The notes beneath the pieces are model-generated. The model was not told the DNA's origin, did no database searches, and was given only the letters and a program-made list of their open reading frames with translations. A DNA stretch of 64,000 bases from contig CAVSPA010000003.1 of assembly GCA_963729715.1 (NCBI GenBank), positions 288,001 through 352,000 of the forward strand, given 5' to 3'. The stretch's first letter is position 1, and each line of letters begins with the position of its first letter. This document shows positions 32,399 through 40,466 of the stretch, piece by piece. A program made the translations under genes and the position numbers. The DNA is from an uncultured delta proteobacterium (GTDB lineage: Bacteria > Desulfobacterota > Syntrophia > Syntrophales > UBA2185).

Positions 32399-34113
32399 AG
32401 AGTCAAAACATCTTGGACGTAATATATAAACAGATATGCTGTTTTAGTTGACAAGGAATGCCATTTGAAAGGGCGGATGTCCATCAAAATTGAACGATGC
32501 TCGACTTCAGCTTACTATAAGGAAGAGAAGTGAGGACATGGTATTCTCGATCTGTTAAAGTTGAATATCCCAAACAAAAATAACAGAAAGGAGAAGTGAC
32601 CATGTCCGAAAGAGATTATAACAGGCAGGCAGCAAGGCGTCAAAGGATCAGTAAGACAACACTGATAGTCGGGGTGGATGTCGGCAAAGCATTCAATGCA
32701 GTGGGATTTATGAATAAGGACGGCAACGTATTGGGCAGCTGTGCGAAGCTGTATAACAACCGGGAAGGGTTTGAGCAGTTTGTAAAGATGATCGAAGGGT
32801 TTAAGGCAAGACATCGTCTCAGAGACGTCCTCATCGGGATGGAGCCAACGGGGCATTACTGGAGGAAGCTTGCCTATTTTGCGAAAGAGCATGGCTATGA
32901 GGTACGCTTTGTGCGTACCACGGCGCTGAAGCATCACCGGGAGCTGGATGAGAGCTCCTCTGCCAAGAGCGACCGGAGAGATGCATTAACCATAGCGAAC
33001 ATTACCCGCGAGGGTAAATATATTGACACAGTCATCGAGGATGGAGTGCTGAGACAGCTGCGGACATTATCAAAGGCACGGGAGCGACTCCTCCGGTACA
33101 GTGTGAGTGCAAAGAACTCCCTGCATGCGGCCCTGGATGACTATTTTCCCGAACTGCATGAGATATTCCGGTCAATGGGGGCGCGGAGCTTGTGGGTGAT
33201 TCTTGAGAAGTGTCCTTTCCCTGAGGACGTTGTGTTGATGGAGACGTCGATTCTTCAGGAATTGATTGCACGGAGTTCACGAAAGAAAGCGGGATCTGCC
33301 GGGAAGGCAAAAGCGCTCTGCGAGGCAGCTCAAAAGAGTATTGGAGTAAAGCAGATCGGCACTGCTGACCGGTACCGGGTATGGATGTGCCTGGAAGAAG
33401 TGAAGCGGACGGTCCTGACGCTCAAGGATATGGATCGACAGCTGAAAAGCATGGTGAAGGACATTCCATCAACGCCCTATCTTATGAGCATCCCGGGCAT
33501 AGGTTACCTGTCTGCAGCTGTATTTCTGGGAGAACTGGGAAACCCTGCGCATTTTCATAATGCCCGCCAGATTGTGAAGTACGCCGGGTACGATCCCCAG
33601 GAGAGTGATTCGGGATCCCGGGTAGGCCGGAAGTTCATTTCCAAGAAGGGGCGGTGGCTCTTACGGAAGTATCTCTTCTTTATGAGTATGAGAGTGATAG
33701 TTTTGAGTAAATATTTTCAGGAGTATTATCACCGCAAATTAGAGACAAAGAACAGAGTGGGTCAGCAGCCCAGAAGGAAGGAGATTCTCTGCGCAGTGGC
33801 TATCAAGCTGATCAAAGTGATCTTTGCGCTGTTACGGGACAAACGGGGATTTGAAGATATGGCGCCTGCTGTAGCAATTGCATAAAACAAAAAAGTGGTT
33901 GTGGTGGAAGGAAGGACCGAATACCTTCGTAGGTCATAGGGCTTGCCTGATTCAGCTTGGTCAACTTCCACCACCCTTTTCGTCCTGCATAAGGTAAGTT
34001 GGGCAGAAGGCCCGTAGAATAAAAGAGGTTAGGTGAAAAGGAATAAAAAGGTTGAAGTACCACCACAACCATTTACAGCTTTAACAGTGTGTCACAAGAA
34101 AATACTTGACTCT
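32399..34113 (+). mobile_element. IS110-family element A (IS1111-like, sub-terminal inverted repeats); true ends probably a few bp outside
   Basis: AGAGTCAA 32399-32406 / TTGACTCT 34106-34113 bracket the recombinase gene; structured non-coding ends. Confidence 0.7.
32596..33885 (+). CDS. IS110-family recombinase/transposase A
   Basis: DEDD RuvC-like (VGVDVGK, MEPTG, KSDRRDA), SIPGIG, AGYDP..SDSG. Confidence 0.95.
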   Translation: MTMSERDYNRQAARRQRISKTTLIVGVDVGKAFNAVGFMNKDGNVLGSCAKLYNNREGFEQFVKMIEGFKARHRLRDVLIGMEPTGHYWRKLAYFAKEHGYEVRFVRTTALKHHRELDESSSAKSDRRDALTIANITREGKYIDTVIEDGVLRQLRTLSKARERLLRYSVSAKNSLHAALDDYFPELHEIFRSMGARSLWVILEKCPFPEDVVLMETSILQELIARSSRKKAGSAGKAKALCEAAQKSIGVKQIGTADRYRVWMCLEEVKRTVLTLKDMDRQLKSMVKDIPSTPYLMSIPGIGYLSAAVFLGELGNPAHFHNARQIVKYAGYDPQESDSGSRVGRKFISKKGRWLLRKYLFFMSMRVIVLSKYFQEYYHRKLETKNRVGQQPRRKEILCAVAIKLIKVIFALLRDKRGFEDMAPAVAIA

Positions 34114-34122
34114 CTTCTCTAG

Positions 34123-34405
34123 AAGCAATTGACCCCGGTGCTACGCAACGGTGTTATTCATGGAAGAAACTGGCTTTATTAAATACAATTTTATAAAGTA
34201 GGCAGCGGGTGCGCCCCGGCAGTCAATATCGACTCCTCACTGGTGTTTTCATACCCGTCTAGAAGCATGGTACCGAGTTTTCTTTGGTTATTACATTGGT
34301 GACAAATCATGTCTTTTCGGCATGTCAGATCCCGTTCAGGAGATTAACCGTTTTTTACCGACTCGGGCCGGGGCATGCCCCAAAAACCAATCAGGGGGCA
34401 AGTTT
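34123..34405 (+). ncRNA. Candidate bridge-RNA-encoding left end of element B
   Basis: ~280 bp non-coding left end with TCAGGAGA (donor junction match) and TCTAGAAGCA (left junction match); RNA not demonstrated. Confidence 0.5.
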
Positions 34406-35806
34406 ATGGGGAACAGTCTTAAAAGGCAACAAAAGAAGTTATCCGTCCAATCTAAGGATTCCGGTATGCTATCCAAGCTTAATTTAAATGCCGCCGGCAT
34501 AGATATCGGTGCAGAGGAGCATTATGTCGCCGTCCCCGAAGATCGTGATAAGCGTCCCGTGCGTCCCTTCCGTTGTTTTACATCCGATCTTCATGCGATG
34601 GCCCAGTGGCTGAAAGAGTGCCGAATCGATAGTGTTGCCATGGAGTCAACGGGTGTTTATTGGATCCCGGTGTTTCAAATTCTTGAGACTTACGGGTTTG
34701 AGGTCAAACTGGTTAATGCCCGGCATGTGAAGAATGTTCCCGGCCGTAAATCGGATGTTCAGGATTGCCAATGGCTGCAAAATCTCCATGCCTACGGTCT
34801 TTTAAGCGGTTCGTTTCGACCGGAAGACCAGATTTGTGTTATGAGGAGTTATTGGCGCCATCGTGACAATCTTCTTCGTTATGCATCCTCTCATATCCTG
34901 CATATGCAGAAGGCGCTTACGGAGATGAATATCCAGTTGCACAAAGTCATCTCGGACATTACCGGTGTTACCGGCATGCGTATTGTTCGTGCCATCATTG
35001 CCGGTGAACGTGACCCCCTTGTTTTGGCCGACATGAGAGATCGCCGTATTATGTGCAGTGTCCAGGACATCGTCAAATCTCTGGAAGGGGACTATCGTGA
35101 AGAACATATGTTTGCTTTAAAGCAGGCCGTTGAACTTTATGATTTTTATCACCAGAAGATTGAAGCCTGCGACCGGCAGATAGAGAATTGTTTGGCCCAA
35201 TTCGACTCCAAATTAGACATAAACACTAACCCGGTGCCTCCTTCAAAAAAGGCAAACAGAAAGCGAAGACGCAACGAGCCTAAAATCGATTTGCATACTC
35301 ACTTATACCGGATAACCGGCGCCGATTTAACCCGGATTGACGGGTTGGATGTAATGACTGTCCAGACGGTCATTAGCGAGGTTGGCCTTAATCCTGGATC
35401 TTTCCCTACGGAGAAGCATTTTGCATCCTGGCTGGGATTATGCCCGGATAATCGCATTACCGGCGGAAAAGTAAAATCCAGTAAAACCCGTAAAGTGGTA
35501 AATCGAGCCGCTGAAGCCTTTCGTATGGCCGCTGAATCTTTGCACAGCAGCGCAAGTGCCTTAGGCGCATATTACCGCCGTATGCGTGCGAGGCTTGGGG
35601 CACCCAAAGCGATTACCGCGACAGCCCATAAGCTTGCCCGCATATTCTATCGTCTTTGGAAAAACGGAGAAGCCTATCTGGACCCCGGAGTAGACTATTA
35701 TGAACAAAAATACAAAGAACGAGTAATTAAAAATATTAAAACTAAAGCCAAACAATTAGGTTATGCCATTACTTTGGAACCTCTCGCTAGCAATGTACGT
35801 TCTTAG
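34406..35806 (+). CDS. IS110-family recombinase B, copy 1
   Basis: AAGIDIG, MESTG, KSDVQDC, WLGLCP..RITGG, AHKLAR; AGGGGG RBS before ATG 34406. Confidence 0.95.
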   Translation: MGNSLKRQQKKLSVQSKDSGMLSKLNLNAAGIDIGAEEHYVAVPEDRDKRPVRPFRCFTSDLHAMAQWLKECRIDSVAMESTGVYWIPVFQILETYGFEVKLVNARHVKNVPGRKSDVQDCQWLQNLHAYGLLSGSFRPEDQICVMRSYWRHRDNLLRYASSHILHMQKALTEMNIQLHKVISDITGVTGMRIVRAIIAGERDPLVLADMRDRRIMCSVQDIVKSLEGDYREEHMFALKQAVELYDFYHQKIEACDRQIENCLAQFDSKLDINTNPVPPSKKANRKRRRNEPKIDLHTHLYRITGADLTRIDGLDVMTVQTVISEVGLNPGSFPTEKHFASWLGLCPDNRITGGKVKSSKTRKVVNRAAEAFRMAAESLHSSASALGAYYRRMRARLGAPKAITATAHKLARIFYRLWKNGEAYLDPGVDYYEQKYKERVIKNIKTKAKQLGYAITLEPLASNVRS

Positions 35807-35968
35807 GAAACCCTTATTGGACGTGAAGTTTCTCAGGAGGTAAGTTGGGCAGAAGGCCCGTAGAATAAAAGAGGTTAGGTGAAAAGGAATAAAAAGGTTG
35901 AAGTACCACCACAACCATTTACAGCTTTAACAGTGTGTCACAAGAAAATACTTGACTCTCTTCTCTAG

Positions 35969-37685
35969 AAGCAATTGACCCCGGTGCTACGCAACGGTGT
36001 TATTCATGGAAGAAACTGGCTTTATTAAATACAATTTTATAAAGTAGGCAGCGGGTGCGCCCCGGCAGTCAATATCGACTCCTCACTGGTGTTTTCATAC
36101 CCGTCTAGAAGCATGGTACCGAGTTTTCTTTGGTTATTACATTGGTGACAAATCATGTCTTTTCGGCATGTCAGATCCCGTTCAGGAGATTAACCGTTTT
36201 TTACCGACTCGGGCCGGGGCATGCCCCAAAAACCAATCAGGGGGCAAGTTTATGGGGAACAGTCTTAAAAGGCAACAAAAGAAGTTATCCGTCCAATCTA
36301 AGGATTCCGGTATGCTATCCAAGCTTAATTTAAATGCCGCCGGCATAGATATCGGTGCAGAGGAGCATTATGTCGCCGTCCCCGAAGATCGTGATAAGCG
36401 TCCCGTGCGTCCCTTCCGTTGTTTTACATCCGATCTTCATGCGATGGCCCAGTGGCTGAAAGAGTGCCGAATCGATAGTGTTGCCATGGAGTCAACGGGT
36501 GTTTATTGGATCCCGGTGTTTCAAATTCTTGAGACTTACGGGTTTGAGGTCAAACTGGTTAATGCCCGGCATGTGAAGAATGTTCCCGGCCGTAAATCGG
36601 ATGTTCAGGATTGCCAATGGCTGCAAAATCTCCATGCCTACGGTCTTTTAAGCGGTTCGTTTCGACCGGAAGACCAGATTTGTGTTATGAGGAGTTATTG
36701 GCGCCATCGTGACAATCTTCTTCGTTATGCATCCTCTCATATCCTGCATATGCAGAAGGCGCTTACGGAGATGAATATCCAGTTGCACAAAGTCATCTCG
36801 GACATTACCGGTGTTACCGGCATGCGTATTGTTCGTGCCATCATTGCCGGTGAACGTGACCCCCTTGTTTTGGCCGACATGAGAGATCGCCGTATTATGT
36901 GCAGTGTCCAGGACATCGTCAAATCTCTGGAAGGGGACTATCGTGAAGAACATATGTTTGCTTTAAAGCAGGCCGTTGAACTTTATGATTTTTATCACCA
37001 GAAGATTGAAGCCTGCGACCGGCAGATAGAGAATTGTTTGGCCCAATTCGACTCCAAATTAGACATAAACACTAACCCGGTGCCTCCTTCAAAAAAGGCA
37101 AACAGAAAGCGAAGACGCAACGAGCCTAAAATCGATTTGCATACTCACTTATACCGGATAACCGGCGCCGATTTAACCCGGATTGACGGGTTGGATGTAA
37201 TGACTGTCCAGACGGTCATTAGCGAGGTTGGCCTTAATCCTGGATCTTTCCCTACGGAGAAGCATTTTGCATCCTGGCTGGGATTATGCCCGGATAATCG
37301 CATTACCGGCGGAAAAGTAAAATCCAGTAAAACCCGTAAAGTGGTAAATCGAGCCGCTGAAGCCTTTCGTATGGCCGCTGAATCTTTGCACAGCAGCGCA
37401 AGTGCCTTAGGCGCATATTACCGCCGTATGCGTGCGAGGCTTGGGGCACCCAAAGCGATTACCGCGACAGCCCATAAGCTTGCCCGCATATTCTATCGTC
37501 TTTGGAAAAACGGAGAAGCCTATCTGGACCCCGGAGTAGACTATTATGAACAAAAATACAAAGAACGAGTAATTAAAAATATTAAAACTAAAGCCAAACA
37601 ATTAGGTTATGCCATTACTTTGGAACCTCTCGCTAGCAATGTACGTTCTTAGGAAACCCTTATTGGACGTGAAGTTTCTCAGGAG
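35969..37685 (+). mobile_element. IS110 element B, copy 2 (preceded by duplicated flank 35840-35968 = 33994-34122)
   Basis: Apparently identical repeat at +1846 bp. Confidence 0.85.
36252..37652 (+). CDS. IS110-family recombinase B, copy 2
   Basis: Identical translation to copy 1. Confidence 0.95.
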   Translation: MGNSLKRQQKKLSVQSKDSGMLSKLNLNAAGIDIGAEEHYVAVPEDRDKRPVRPFRCFTSDLHAMAQWLKECRIDSVAMESTGVYWIPVFQILETYGFEVKLVNARHVKNVPGRKSDVQDCQWLQNLHAYGLLSGSFRPEDQICVMRSYWRHRDNLLRYASSHILHMQKALTEMNIQLHKVISDITGVTGMRIVRAIIAGERDPLVLADMRDRRIMCSVQDIVKSLEGDYREEHMFALKQAVELYDFYHQKIEACDRQIENCLAQFDSKLDINTNPVPPSKKANRKRRRNEPKIDLHTHLYRITGADLTRIDGLDVMTVQTVISEVGLNPGSFPTEKHFASWLGLCPDNRITGGKVKSSKTRKVVNRAAEAFRMAAESLHSSASALGAYYRRMRARLGAPKAITATAHKLARIFYRLWKNGEAYLDPGVDYYEQKYKERVIKNIKTKAKQLGYAITLEPLASNVRS

Positions 37686-38273
37686 GCAAACAGAAAGCGA
37701 AGACGCAACGAGCCTAAAATCGATTTGCATACTCACTTATACCGGATAACCGGCGCCGATTTAACCCGGATTGACGGGTTGGATGTAATGACTGTCCAGA
37801 CGGTCATTAGCGAGGTTGGCCTTAATCCTGGATCTTTCCCTACGGAGAAGCATTTTGCATCCTGGCTGGGATTATGCCCGGATAATCGCATTACCGGCGG
37901 AAAAGTAAAATCCAGTAAAACCCGTAAAGTGGTAAATCGAGCCGCTGAAGCCTTTCGTATGGCCGCTGAATCTTTGCACAGCAGCGCAAGTGCCTTAGGC
38001 GCATATTACCGCCGTATGCGTGCGAGGCTTGGGGCACCCAAAGCGATTACCGCGACAGCCCATAAGCTTGCCCGCATATTCTATCGTCTTTGGAAAAACG
38101 GAGAAGCCTATCTGGACCCCGGAGTAGACTATTATGAACAAAAATACAAAGAACGAGTAATTAAAAATATTAAAACTAAAGCCAAACAATTAGGTTATGC
38201 CATTACTTTGGAACCTCTCGCTAGCAATGTACGTTCTTAGGAAACCCTTATTGGACGTGAAGTTTCTCAGGAG
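37686..38273 (+). pseudogene. IS110 element B, 5'-truncated copy 3 (588 bp; C-terminal Tnp domain + right end)
   Basis: Equals 35252-35839; begins at internal AAAG|GCAAAC site. Confidence 0.9.
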
Positions 38274-38374
38274 GAAGAGGTTAGGTGAAAAGGAATAAAA
38301 AGGTTGAAGTACCACCACAACCATTTACAGCTTTAACAGTGTGTCACAAGAAAATACTTGACTCTCTTCTCTAG

Positions 38375-40091
38375 AAGCAATTGACCCCGGTGCTACGCAA
38401 CGGTGTTATTCATGGAAGAAACTGGCTTTATTAAATACAATTTTATAAAGTAGGCAGCGGGTGCGCCCCGGCAGTCAATATCGACTCCTCACTGGTGTTT
38501 TCATACCCGTCTAGAAGCATGGTACCGAGTTTTCTTTGGTTATTACATTGGTGACAAATCATGTCTTTTCGGCATGTCAGATCCCGTTCAGGAGATTAAC
38601 CGTTTTTTACCGACTCGGGCCGGGGCATGCCCCAAAAACCAATCAGGGGGCAAGTTTATGGGGAACAGTCTTAAAAGGCAACAAAAGAAGTTATCCGTCC
38701 AATCTAAGGATTCCGGTATGCTATCCAAGCTTAATTTAAATGCCGCCGGCATAGATATCGGTGCAGAGGAGCATTATGTCGCCGTCCCCGAAGATCGTGA
38801 TAAGCGTCCCGTGCGTCCCTTCCGTTGTTTTACATCCGATCTTCATGCGATGGCCCAGTGGCTGAAAGAGTGCCGAATCGATAGTGTTGCCATGGAGTCA
38901 ACGGGTGTTTATTGGATCCCGGTGTTTCAAATTCTTGAGACTTACGGGTTTGAGGTCAAACTGGTTAATGCCCGGCATGTGAAGAATGTTCCCGGCCGTA
39001 AATCGGATGTTCAGGATTGCCAATGGCTGCAAAATCTCCATGCCTACGGTCTTTTAAGCGGTTCGTTTCGACCGGAAGACCAGATTTGTGTTATGAGGAG
39101 TTATTGGCGCCATCGTGACAATCTTCTTCGTTATGCATCCTCTCATATCCTGCATATGCAGAAGGCGCTTACGGAGATGAATATCCAGTTGCACAAAGTC
39201 ATCTCGGACATTACCGGTGTTACCGGCATGCGTATTGTTCGTGCCATCATTGCCGGTGAACGTGACCCCCTTGTTTTGGCCGACATGAGAGATCGCCGTA
39301 TTATGTGCAGTGTCCAGGACATCGTCAAATCTCTGGAAGGGGACTATCGTGAAGAACATATGTTTGCTTTAAAGCAGGCCGTTGAACTTTATGATTTTTA
39401 TCACCAGAAGATTGAAGCCTGCGACCGGCAGATAGAGAATTGTTTGGCCCAATTCGACTCCAAATTAGACATAAACACTAACCCGGTGCCTCCTTCAAAA
39501 AAGGCAAACAGAAAGCGAAGACGCAACGAGCCTAAAATCGATTTGCATACTCACTTATACCGGATAACCGGCGCCGATTTAACCCGGATTGACGGGTTGG
39601 ATGTAATGACTGTCCAGACGGTCATTAGCGAGGTTGGCCTTAATCCTGGATCTTTCCCTACGGAGAAGCATTTTGCATCCTGGCTGGGATTATGCCCGGA
39701 TAATCGCATTACCGGCGGAAAAGTAAAATCCAGTAAAACCCGTAAAGTGGTAAATCGAGCCGCTGAAGCCTTTCGTATGGCCGCTGAATCTTTGCACAGC
39801 AGCGCAAGTGCCTTAGGCGCATATTACCGCCGTATGCGTGCGAGGCTTGGGGCACCCAAAGCGATTACCGCGACAGCCCATAAGCTTGCCCGCATATTCT
39901 ATCGTCTTTGGAAAAACGGAGAAGCCTATCTGGACCCCGGAGTAGACTATTATGAACAAAAATACAAAGAACGAGTAATTAAAAATATTAAAACTAAAGC
40001 CAAACAATTAGGTTATGCCATTACTTTGGAACCTCTCGCTAGCAATGTACGTTCTTAGGAAACCCTTATTGGACGTGAAGTTTCTCAGGAG
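38375..40091 (+). mobile_element. IS110 element B, copy 4 (preceded by duplicated flank 38275-38374 = 34023-34122)
   Basis: Apparently identical repeat at +4252 bp; followed by unique flank AGGAAGGTAG. Confidence 0.85.
38658..40058 (+). CDS. IS110-family recombinase B, copy 4
   Basis: Identical translation to copy 1. Confidence 0.95.
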   Translation: MGNSLKRQQKKLSVQSKDSGMLSKLNLNAAGIDIGAEEHYVAVPEDRDKRPVRPFRCFTSDLHAMAQWLKECRIDSVAMESTGVYWIPVFQILETYGFEVKLVNARHVKNVPGRKSDVQDCQWLQNLHAYGLLSGSFRPEDQICVMRSYWRHRDNLLRYASSHILHMQKALTEMNIQLHKVISDITGVTGMRIVRAIIAGERDPLVLADMRDRRIMCSVQDIVKSLEGDYREEHMFALKQAVELYDFYHQKIEACDRQIENCLAQFDSKLDINTNPVPPSKKANRKRRRNEPKIDLHTHLYRITGADLTRIDGLDVMTVQTVISEVGLNPGSFPTEKHFASWLGLCPDNRITGGKVKSSKTRKVVNRAAEAFRMAAESLHSSASALGAYYRRMRARLGAPKAITATAHKLARIFYRLWKNGEAYLDPGVDYYEQKYKERVIKNIKTKAKQLGYAITLEPLASNVRS

Positions 40092-40466
40092 AGGAAGGTA
40101 GTCTCACCCACCACATCTATCATAACTGAAGTTGTTCCTAGAAGGATTACAACCCGTTATCAATATCGATGCGGAAGATCGTACACCTCATCTCTGTACG
40201 AATGGGTGTAAACACTATAATGGTCTCACTGATGTCAATGATGGGAAGTTCAAGGAATTCTGTTGGGAAGATGGATGCAAAAAAATTTACGAAGGTCATT
40301 ATTGTAGATTGCATGATAGTAATAAACCCATATTCTAGTCAGGATCTCTGTTCAGTTCATACGGGGTCGGAAGACCAGTAACTTTTGAGGGAGGGGGAAA
40401 TTTGGTCTGTATTTGAAGACCAGCATGCTTTATAGTGTATTAAACTACTAATAGGAGGAACAAAAT

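Follow-up and report, generated by a model that had tools for sequence, protein, structure and literature searches.

An IS110-family element in tandem units that share one exact right end and begin at varying upstream points

Two nested IS110-family elements

The window, a stretch of 64,000 nucleotides from an uncultured delta proteobacterium (contig CAVSPA010000003.1 of assembly GCA_963729715.1), contains two IS110-family elements, here termed A and B, with B lodged inside A, 6 bp short of its right end. Element B is present in three and a third head-to-tail copies, at whose joints the sequence leaves the exact right end of the element and restarts at varying upstream points (Table 1). The array sits within a 383-kb contig, with unique genes flanking it on both sides, and the order and copy number of its units are taken from this assembly alone.

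Table 1. Coordinates, in the window, of elements A and B, of the units and joints of the array, and of the guides encoded by B
Feature	Position	Strand	Remark
Element A, all but its last 6 bp	32503..34125	+	IS110 family; left limit by comparison with a second A copy on contig C4
A recombinase ORF	32596-33885	+	Pfam DEDD_Tnp_IS110 1.3e-31, Transposase_20 1.3e-21
A long 3' non-coding end	33886-34125	+	contiguous with AGGAAG in 9/10 A-relative loci
Last 6 bp of A, AGGAAG	40092..40097	+	split off by B insertion; doubles as right-target sequence of B
B left-target CTAGA + core AG	34119..34125	+	left insertion joint; identical to guide 34259-34265
B left non-coding end encoding bridge RNA	34126..34405	+	alignments A1 and A2 show covariation; stems conserved, with G-U pairs on + strand
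Right-target guide CTCCT	34233-34237	+	covariation
Left-target guide + core + 2 nt, CTAGAAGCA	34259-34267	+	covariation
Left-donor guide TCAGGAG, 7 nt	34336-34342	+	covariation; equals last 7 nt of B
B recombinase gene	34406..35806	+	likely start ATG 34406; longest ORF from 34322; identical copies 36252-37652, 38658-40058
B right end, left-donor TCAGG + core AG	35833..35839	+	repeated 37679-37685, 38267-38273, 40085-40091; equals guide 34336-34342
Unit a	33994..35839	+	132-bp leader from A (33994-34125) + full B copy 1 (34126-35839)
Unit b	35840..37685	+	second 132-bp leader + full B copy 2 (35972-37685)
Unit c	37686..38273	+	3' 588 bp of B (= 35252-35839)
Unit d	38274..40091	+	shortened leader + full B copy 3 (38378-40091)
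Joint 1	35839..35840	.	right end to 33994; source AG 33992-33993
Joint 2	37685..37686	.	right end to 35252, within recombinase gene; source AG 35250-35251
Joint 3	38273..38274	.	right end, then G, then 34023 onward

Element B spans positions 34126-35839 (1714 bp, core AG), with a left end of 280 nt and a right end of 33 nt. Its recombinase matches the Pfam families DEDD_Tnp_IS110 (PF01548, 6.1e-18) and Transposase_20 (PF02371, 1.3e-10), and B is an IS110-family element of the IS110 group, with an N-terminal DEDD (RuvC-like) and a C-terminal Tnp domain. In a weak match to IS621 (8wt6, E 1.2e-5), whose alignment spans two of the four acidic residues, the first D and the E align, and a threonine (motif ITGG) stands at the position of the catalytic Ser241. 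This substitution was counted against the interpretation favoured below. Among 83 relatives with the motif, that position is T in 32 and S in 51; a limited search of the IS110 literature, which is no proof of absence, found no Thr variant of the catalytic Ser, and catalysis with Thr in place of Ser is regarded as putative.

The insertion of B is site-specific and lacks terminal inverted repeats, with one core dinucleotide common to target and element. In four independent genomic copies, (C/T)TAGA+AG precedes the element and AGG(A/G)(A/G) follows it, and the empty site can be recognized in 9/10 loci of uninterrupted A relatives, where ...CTAGAAG runs straight into AGGAAG and the flanks diverge beyond. 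The sequence-only reading had set the left limit of B at 34123; four other B copies begin at 34126, and the left core is the AG at 34124-34125. With this limit, joint 1 restarts 132 bp outside B, rather than the 129 bp claimed earlier, and a canonical circle would measure 1714 bp. Across 61 related genomes, full-length copies of B occur solely in the window's own genome, the others being partial and 68-85% identical, and an exact 21-nt right-end pattern had 0 matches in each of the two contig collections searched (metagenomes and genomes).

The joints of the array

Three exact self-matches, all 100% identical, define the array: 33994-35839 recurs as 35840-37685 (1846 bp), 35252-35839 as 37686-38273 (588 bp), and 34023-35839 as 38275-40091 (1817 bp). 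They bear out what had been proposed from the letters for the overall arrangement and for the first two joints, namely four copies of B with an identical right end (35839, 37685, 38273 and 40091, all reading ...GTTTCTCAGGAG, with different DNA after each), a joint 1 at 33993/33994 and a joint 2 at 35251/35252 in the recombinase gene, both sharing only AG with their sources. Joint 1 goes on with GTAAGTTGGG (source context CTGCATA-AG-GTAAG) and joint 2 with GCAAACAG (source context TCAAAAA-AG-GCAAAC), and the overlap of joint and source is in both exactly AG. Since AG makes up 5.9% of positions in 33886-35830 (115 sites), two clean AG overlaps in two clean joints have a probability of about 0.0035. 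Unit c retains a truncated ORF of 171 aa (37725-38240), and the DNA carried along in the leaders (33994-34125) is the 3' non-coding end of A.

Joint 3 departs from the simple AG rule and is not a clean AG event. The earlier placement near 34025/34026, with an extra GAAG, is a valid reading of ...CAGGAG-G-AAGAGGTTAGG, although the same letters can equally be read as one extra G before 34023, or as the right end minus its AG, followed by the terminal AGGAAG of A and then by 34026 onward. Another reading takes joint 3 as joint 1 shortened by 28 bp, and a joint found in another metagenome (run X1, see below) can likewise be taken as joint 1 shortened by 39 bp, between two copies of AGGT, so that independent recombinase events may number as few as two. 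Joints 2 and 3 are present in this assembly only.

The fixed side of every joint is the left-donor half-site with its core (TCAGG+AG); at 3/3 internal joints these 7 nt still match the left-donor guide of the resident bridge RNA, and the outer end of the array (40091) stops at the same base. One coordinate common to three joints, exact to the base, cannot be due to chance. The variable side matches the right-donor sequence CAATT at 0 to 1 of 5 bases, and when the 115 AG sites are compared, its likeness to the right-donor, left-target and right-target sequences is at chance level; ordered by likeness to the right-donor sequence, joints 1 and 2 both come 98th, and the AG sites used for joint 3 and for the X1 joint both come 32nd. 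None of the three joints continues with CAATTG, the left end of B itself, as a canonical IS dimer would. A scan of 33880-36000 for σ70-type promoters returned 4 sites where 3.3 are expected; neither joint 1 nor the interior of the left end has one.

Bridge RNA guides and related loci

The guides of B were identified by covariation across related elements. The left-donor guide lies in the motif CCCGT-N5-AG-A, and in 103/158 related loci the 7-mer of this motif is found again at the element end, 1150-1750 bp downstream, in at least 15 different versions; guide and right end change together, for instance, to TTAGAAG (L022, L028), TCAAGAG (L152) and TGGGGAG (L112). The corresponding left-target rule is exact (7/7 bases) in 40/47 distinct related elements, and the right-target guide scores 2.38 of 5 against 1.30 +/- 0.14 after permutation. 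The stems of the bridge RNA are conserved with compensatory changes. A fold of the B left end as a single sequence was no better than that of shuffles (z = 0.20), and a comparison with Rfam (E up to 1) gave no match between 30000 and 44000. A second stretch of 7 nt, in which the right end (35827-35833) is complementary to the left-end RNA (34165-34171), also covaries. Complement matching in B, L152, L112 and L022, together with inspection of alignment A2 by eye, gave no consistent right-donor guide, so the statement that right-donor matches are missing at the joints refers to comparison with the right-donor sequence itself.

Joints anchored at the same right end recur in two other metagenomes. 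Run X1 (study P1) yielded a contig of 1837 nt that begins and ends with the same 30 nt of B, closing a cycle of 1807 bp; at its joint, which has more than 500 nt to either side, the right end is followed by GTGAAAAGG (source AG 34031-34032). Run X3 (study P2) yielded a contig of 1874 nt with the same 30-nt closure and a cycle of 1844 bp; it belongs to the joint-1 type, but its leader has lost 2 nt and carries one substitution. As bridging a joint was taken to require 31 nt on both sides, the latter contig, which reaches 28 nt beyond joint 1, was not counted as bridging, though its ends close a cycle. The two cyclic contigs have depths of 14 and 18, and that of X1 is cut at an arbitrary place inside B; the contigs themselves fit circles and pure tandem arrays alike. 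A contig of run X4 stops at 40097. In runs X1-X4, whose contigs can show presence only, none runs over joint 2 and none over joint 3 exactly as in the window.

Of the 158 related loci, 3 contain tandem copies (L112, L152 and L165), all with canonical or near-canonical joints of right end to left end and none with a variable left side, a point against the interpretation favoured below; in L152 and L112 the right end directly abuts the element's own left end, as in a canonical dimer. No terminal overlaps of at least 15 nt were found among the 158 loci. A further relative, L021 (93% identical), carries an A-like leader before its left end and a right flank unlike the right-target guide, and this flank gave only chance-level local alignments with element A.

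How the units may have arisen

The array probably arose by half-match, left-donor-only recombination of an active AG-core IS110-group element, which would generate tandem units anchored at the right end. B would have inserted at its cognate target (CTAGA, AG, AGGAAG), 6 bp from the right end of A. Its recombinase, steered by the 7-nt left-donor guide of the bridge RNA, would then have repeatedly engaged the right end of B (TCAGG+AG) and, instead of using the cognate left end, exchanged strands with unrelated same-strand sites further upstream that offer little beyond AG. Each such event would join the right end to an upstream point, leading to duplication in place by exchange between sister copies or, alternatively, to the release of a circle (1846, about 1818, 1807 or 588 bp) and its re-entry at a resident copy; which of these two routes was taken can only be inferred. 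The expected outcome is a series of head-to-tail units with a common right end, variable starts and 94-132 bp of the end of A carried along. That the recombinase of B, together with its bridge RNA, made the joints is what we infer from the sequences, and the repeated recombination of the right end with ectopic AG sites put forward by the sequence-only reading gains support from a guide that equals the fixed side and a variable side that has AG only. Its view that homologous recombination is insufficient also holds, as exchange between identical copies alters copy number and cannot create these joints. Two other models were considered: a canonical insertion of a B circle at 33992-33993 was dropped because it predicts one leader where two are present, and the recombinase of A was excluded at joints 1 and 2 because both lack its terminal AGGAAG.

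It is fairly unlikely that the series a-b-c-d, though made of real joints, reflects the path of the assembler across a mixed population, in which it chained molecules with single joints via their shared 1.7-kb repeat. The mechanism of joint formation would then be unchanged, without a four-unit amplification in one chromosome, and each joint type would reside in different cells or in free circles and concatemers. The genome, a metagenome bin, comprises 19 contigs and has 6.48% contamination, another of its contigs ends inside a B copy, indicating that not all repeats were resolved, every joint type occurs just once in the array, and the X1 and X3 contigs show single-joint cycles without chromosomal flanks. 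Against this stand the position of the array between unique genes inside a 383-kb contig, the plain repetition of one joint type with its context in units a and b, which an artefact need not yield, and the true tandem copies of relatives from long-read bins.

Much less probable is a genuine longer form of B that comprises all 1846 bp of the unit and has its own left end at 33994; joint 1 would then be a canonical dimer or circle joint. The recurrence of the joint-1 type in another study (run X3), with small sequence differences, and the A-like leader of L021, next to a right flank that misfits the right-target guide, would agree with such a form. However, the leader belongs to A, being contiguous with it in the window, in the C4 copy and in 9/10 A-relative loci without B; four other B copies begin at 34126; the left-target guide fits CTAGA+AG at 34119-34125 and not the DNA preceding 33994; and joints 2 and 3 and the X1 joint would be left unexplained. 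Host processes without an IS recombinase (replication slippage or microhomology-mediated template switching) are very improbable. The 2-nt overlaps, typical of microhomology events, and the filler base at joint 3 would suit them, but they give no reason for one base-exact endpoint in three joints here and two in other samples, an endpoint that is exactly the guide-specified end of B.

Half-match, left-donor-only recombination has close counterparts, here compared with parts of the respective papers. Hu, Xie, Yang and Rubin (bioRxiv 10.64898/2026.08.14.744561) report that tandem repeat units at IS110 loci keep left-donor matches almost exclusively and that partial circles reuse one terminus, and propose left-donor-started reactions that are resolved in place, duplicating the interval. 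By their definition (adjacent, same strand, at least 50 bp, at least 95% identity, at least 2 copies), the B array consists of repeat units of 1846, 1846, 588 and 1818 bp, 100% identical. As at their loci, full and partial modules are adjacent on the same strand, the left-donor match is kept, the right-donor match is absent and endpoints recur; unlike there, as far as those parts describe the loci, B stays small, the captured DNA comes from the end of a second IS110 element, a single array combines three different joints, and covariation revealed the guide directly. Xie et al. (bioRxiv 10.64898/2026.08.31.748434) found that a half-match to the bridge RNA suffices for IS621 recombination in vitro. 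Half match and retained core dinucleotide are common to both systems, whereas their evidence is biochemical and concerns IS621, a CT core and donor-arm-driven excision and off-target insertion, and that for B is of sequence only and concerns AG and tandem duplication. The B array matches the left-donor-only units and the half-match recombination of these two 2026 preprints, with no new principle beyond them, and the claim of a new IS110 amplification route is pre-empted.

Other family members resemble B in part. ISPpu9 of Pseudomonas putida (Pares-Guillen et al., bioRxiv 10.1101/2025.01.17.633520) likewise yields circles of differing content from one IS110-family element, although its alternative ends, as described in the passages considered, are related boxes delimiting modules, and the variable ends of B have only AG in common. 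In the features those passages treat, B agrees with IS621 (Durrant et al. 2024, PMC11208160; Hiraizumi et al. 2024, PMC11208158) in having DEDD and Tnp domains and a long left end that codes for an RNA with two internal loops; in both, the guides take in the core, and nothing of the target except the core is duplicated. B differs in its core (AG instead of CT), the Thr at the Ser241 position, a right-donor guide that was not found in B, and a protein of about 466 aa compared with 328 in the solved IS621 chain. CazIS110-1 (Sun et al., bioRxiv 10.1101/2025.10.25.684509) gave tandem cargo repeats in vivo in 3/96 colonies, again from an IS110 recombinase system; these are whole-unit repeats judged to be transient by-products, and variable left joints are absent from the passages covered.

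A doubtful further idea is that in the clade of B the donor is read through the right end alone, via the left-donor guide and the second 7-nt complementarity, no right-donor guide having been detected. If so, the left boundary would go unchecked by the RNA, and right-end-anchored circles with upstream DNA would be a regular product. On this reading, the depths of the two cyclic contigs and the arbitrary cut of that from X1 suggest that units of B with captured leader may persist as free circles or as long pure arrays, which would represent a natural one-ended mode of capture.

The locus offers a clean natural specimen of bridge-recombinase half-match recombination, in which guide, empty target, several independent right-end-anchored joints and captured flank can be read from the DNA, in an uncultured bacterium and in an AG-core clade distant from IS621. 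It speaks for one-sided reactions as a means by which IS110 elements expand and acquire adjacent DNA, and implies that off-target events of bridge editors can need little beyond the core and one guide arm.

The array and its joints

Between 32 and 42 kb of the window a repeat search returned families with spacings of 1846, 588 and 1818 bp, and exact extension resolves them into head-to-tail units without a single mismatch (see the table). The right end of the IS110-family element B, ...GTTTCTCAGGAG, terminates at 35839, 37685, 38273 and 40091, so that the observation of the sequence-only reading that four identical right ends each resume elsewhere is borne out, as is its claim that joints 1 and 2, at which this right end meets upstream DNA, overlap their source sites by AG only (33992-33993 and 35250-35251, respectively). 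The four-unit structure is real at the level of the sequence; a single chromosome with the four units in this order is the putative arrangement, as given by this assembly. AG makes up 5.9% of positions, and those used, among the 115 AG sites in 33886-35830, have no unusual likeness to the right donor, the right target or the left target. Probably the best explanation of the joints is that the recombinase of B started from its right-end half-site and used AG sites other than its cognate ones.

Features of the array, of its guides and of its surroundings (window positions)
Feature	Position	Description
A recombinase ORF	32596-33885	DEDD_Tnp_IS110 and Transposase_20 domains; just upstream of the B ORF; separate element
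B recombinase ORF	34322-35806, likely start 34406	DEDD_Tnp_IS110 and Transposase_20 domains
Truncated ORF, 171 aa	in the 588-bp unit	second domain only (Transposase_20)
Repeat, 1846 bp	33994-35839 = 35840-37685	zero mismatches
Repeat, 588 bp	35252-35839 = 37686-38273	zero mismatches
Repeat, 1817 bp	34023-35839 = 38275-40091	zero mismatches
Joint 1	after 35839	then GTAAGTTGGG
Joint 2	after 37685	then GCAAACAG
Joint 3	after 38273	then GAAGAGGTTAGG
Outer flank	after 40091	then AGGAAGGTAG
Right-target guide block	34233-34237	CTCCT
Left-target guide block	34259-34267	CCCGT-CTAGA-AG-CA; equals 34119-34127
Left-donor guide block	34336-34342	CCCGT-TCAGGAG-A; equals last 7 nt of B
Left neighbour		pyruvate kinase
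Right neighbour		aminotransferase and LolA

Joint 3 contains one base, G, that is absent from its source, and three readings of it may be given: the right end followed by one untemplated G and 34023 onward; joint 1 minus 28 bp (33995-34022); or the right end without its AG, followed by AGGAAG, the terminus of the other IS110-family element, A, and 34026 onward. For the third of these the source has AG directly before 34026, and the joint, if so formed, would be anchored at the right end of A and shifted by a 2-nt slip. Since joint 3 is readable in this way, the right end of A, too, may have acted there as a one-sided joint maker. The “extra GAAG” reported earlier at this joint (38268-38285) equals the last four bases of A.

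Guides, limits and recombinase of element B

When B is aligned with its metagenome relatives (93% identity for L021, 90% for L022 and 87% for L028), two short non-coding blocks near the left end covary with the ends of the element. The 7-mer of the first, TCAGGAG in B, changes together with the right end to TTAGAAG in L022 and L028, to TCAAGAG in L152 and to TGGGGAG in L112. Among 158 loci with relatives of the recombinase (80 metagenome contigs and 78 genome contigs), this 7-mer recurs in 103 at what is evidently the right end, 1150-1750 bp downstream, in at least 15 different versions, every one of which ends in AG. TCAGGAG is the left-donor guide in the sense of Durrant et al. (PMC11208160). 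The second block has the same sequence as the left insertion joint, and 40 of 47 distinct related elements show this agreement in all 7 nt; it is the left-target guide plus the core, with two bases after it that equal the first two of the element. On the opposite side of the left-target loop, the variable CTCCT is complementary to the DNA past the right end, with a mean of 2.38 out of 5 matches for the right-target guide versus 1.30 ± 0.14 when permuted (1000 permutations). RNAalifold, applied to 52 sequences, recovered the loop-closing stems with compensatory changes and many G-U pairs, thus placing the bridge RNA on the plus strand.

The guide matches set the left core at the AG at 34124-34125, thereby correcting the left end proposed from sequence alone to 34126, and B spans 34126-35839, that is, 1714 bp with one core. 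In the B clade, the guides equal to the top strand (left-target and left-donor; each N5 + AG) follow the inner hairpin, in the 3' half of each internal loop (34195-34345, in the alignment of left ends), and the right-target guide stands in the 5' half. This order is the reverse of that described for IS621, in which it is the 5' side that pairs with the bottom strand (PMC11208160). Furthermore, AGAAACT (34165-34171), some 40 nt in from the left end, is complementary to AGTTTCT (35827-35833), just before the left-donor sequence, and the two covary: in 54 of 80 distinct relatives these stretches are exact reverse complements over 6 nt or more (permuted pairs, mean 18, maximum 30). By this pairing the RNA could read the right end a second time, or a transcript that crosses the joint could form a stem.

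As regards the protein, the motif ITGG in the Tnp domain of B (34406-35806) holds a threonine where IS621 has the catalytic Ser241, and the same residue was noted in the nearest relatives (loci L021-L044). In the 83 relatives that have the motif F(A/S)xWxGxxP...x(S/T)G, the aligned position is T in 32 and S in 51. A literature search found no mention of a threonine variant of the IS110 catalytic serine. The threonine form appears active, given several identical, intact copies of B.

Element A and the empty site

The window lies within contig C3 of a 3.76-Mb genome bin of 19 contigs that harbours further copies of B, two of them on C3 (at 100.5 kb and at the contig end) and others on C5 and on C4, the latter again following a copy of A. 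C3 ends inside a B copy (381239-382956), 3 nt short of the right end, which means that the assembly was interrupted by B at least once. The 35 differences between the two copies of A, in the window and on C4, form a cluster within 32793-33262 and also fall at 33947-33948, and the remainder, B included, is identical; this central 470-bp patch and the two further bases look like the outcome of recombination between diverged copies. In both, B occupies one and the same nested position within the right end of A (window 32503-34125 plus 40092-40097; C4 690302-693638).

The terminal hexamer of A, AGGAAG, equals the right-target sequence of B, and insertion of B thus parts the right-end half-site of A from the rest of that element. 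A search with the DNA of this end against 22 genomes of the same family gave 10 loci for examination, nine of which read ...CTCTTCC(C/T)TAGAAG and then directly AGGAAG, their flanks diverging afterwards, the tenth being a fragment without the part holding the insertion site. The uninterrupted CTAGAAG-AGGAAG in relatives of A is the empty site predicted by the guides of B. B therefore lies 6 bp from the right end of A, and the 132 bp that the first two units of the array, a and b, carry along are the end of A and not part of B.

In congeneric genomes, pieces of the 3' non-coding end of A also occur on their own, without the recombinase gene: one is a fragment of 66 nt (34009-34074), another a copy without 33682-34079, and the third a contig starting at the source site of joint 1 (33991) (L186, G001:C121; L191, G004:C127; L190, G003:C97). 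Such separate pieces recall the separate small-RNA modules of ISPpu9.

Joints in related loci, other metagenomes and published systems

Self-comparison of the 158 related loci revealed tandem copies of the element in three (L152, L112 and L165), all from long-read bins whose record titles name Alphaproteobacteria, Spirochaetota and Isosphaeraceae, respectively. L152 (2231-5455) is a perfect dimer with GAG common to the copies, L165 (3578-7467) is a dimer, and L112 (1-5777) has three copies or more, one of them interrupted by an insertion of about 2.4 kb with a flanking 8-bp duplication, GTTGATAA; the joints of all three are head-to-tail and canonical or nearly so. Most of the 158 loci stem from short-read assemblies, in which such arrays are collapsed, and these counts thus give no frequency estimate. 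In L021 (1-1940), from another metagenome, an A-like leader (86% identical) precedes the left end, the right end is followed by TTGTATCGAAGG, with no fit to the right-target guide of L021, and the start of the contig lies 2-3 nt away from where joint 3 stands in the window.

Twenty runs contain part of the stretch, the best six matching about half its words, roughly the share of B. Logan contigs from four of these (X1-X4), representing two studies, were compared with 33800-40300. In X1, from study P1, a 1837-nt contig aligns to 37766-39613 with 11 nt omitted at 38272 and ends on the same 30 nt of B, giving a cycle of 1807 bp cut at an arbitrary point inside B, as expected of an unbranched cycle; at its joint the right end runs into GTGAAAAGG, a sequence with AG immediately before it in the source (34031-34032). 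In X3, from study P2, a 1874-nt contig on 33992-35867 shows the same 30-nt closure and yields a 1844-bp cycle of the joint-1 type, with a 2-nt deletion and one substitution in the leader; this contig continues for 28 letters past the joint, below the 31-letter bridging rule, and the closure of the cycle points the same way. X2 carries an allele of the C4 type at 33947-33948, and a contig of X4 ends at 40097, the last base of A. Joint 2, and joint 3 as in the window, are covered by none of the Logan contigs from X1-X4; the evidence for two of the three joints of the window, as for unit order, comes from this assembly alone. The cycles of X1 and X3 indicate that right-end-anchored joints with variable left sides exist beyond it. 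Besides the window, the variable-left pattern was seen in Logan contigs, and in none of the 158 related loci.

The proposal of one-ended recombination at ectopic AG cores is accordingly supported as a mechanism; its presentation as a new route is not, since preprints of 2026 already describe it. That of Hu et al. (bioRxiv 10.64898/2026.08.14.744561, August 2026) reports left-donor matches kept almost exclusively at repeat-unit boundaries, partial circles reusing one terminus and an unmatched boundary without residual likeness, and speculates that left-donor-initiated reactions are resolved in place, with duplication of the interval. A half-match to the bridge RNA is enough, as shown for IS621 (Xie et al., bioRxiv 10.64898/2026.08.31.748434, September 2026), tandem cargo repeats arose in 3 of 96 colonies (Sun et al., bioRxiv 10.1101/2025.10.25.684509), and ISPpu9 forms several types of circle (bioRxiv 10.1101/2025.01.17.633520). 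The locus in the window is a new, well-resolved instance of a mechanism already in print.
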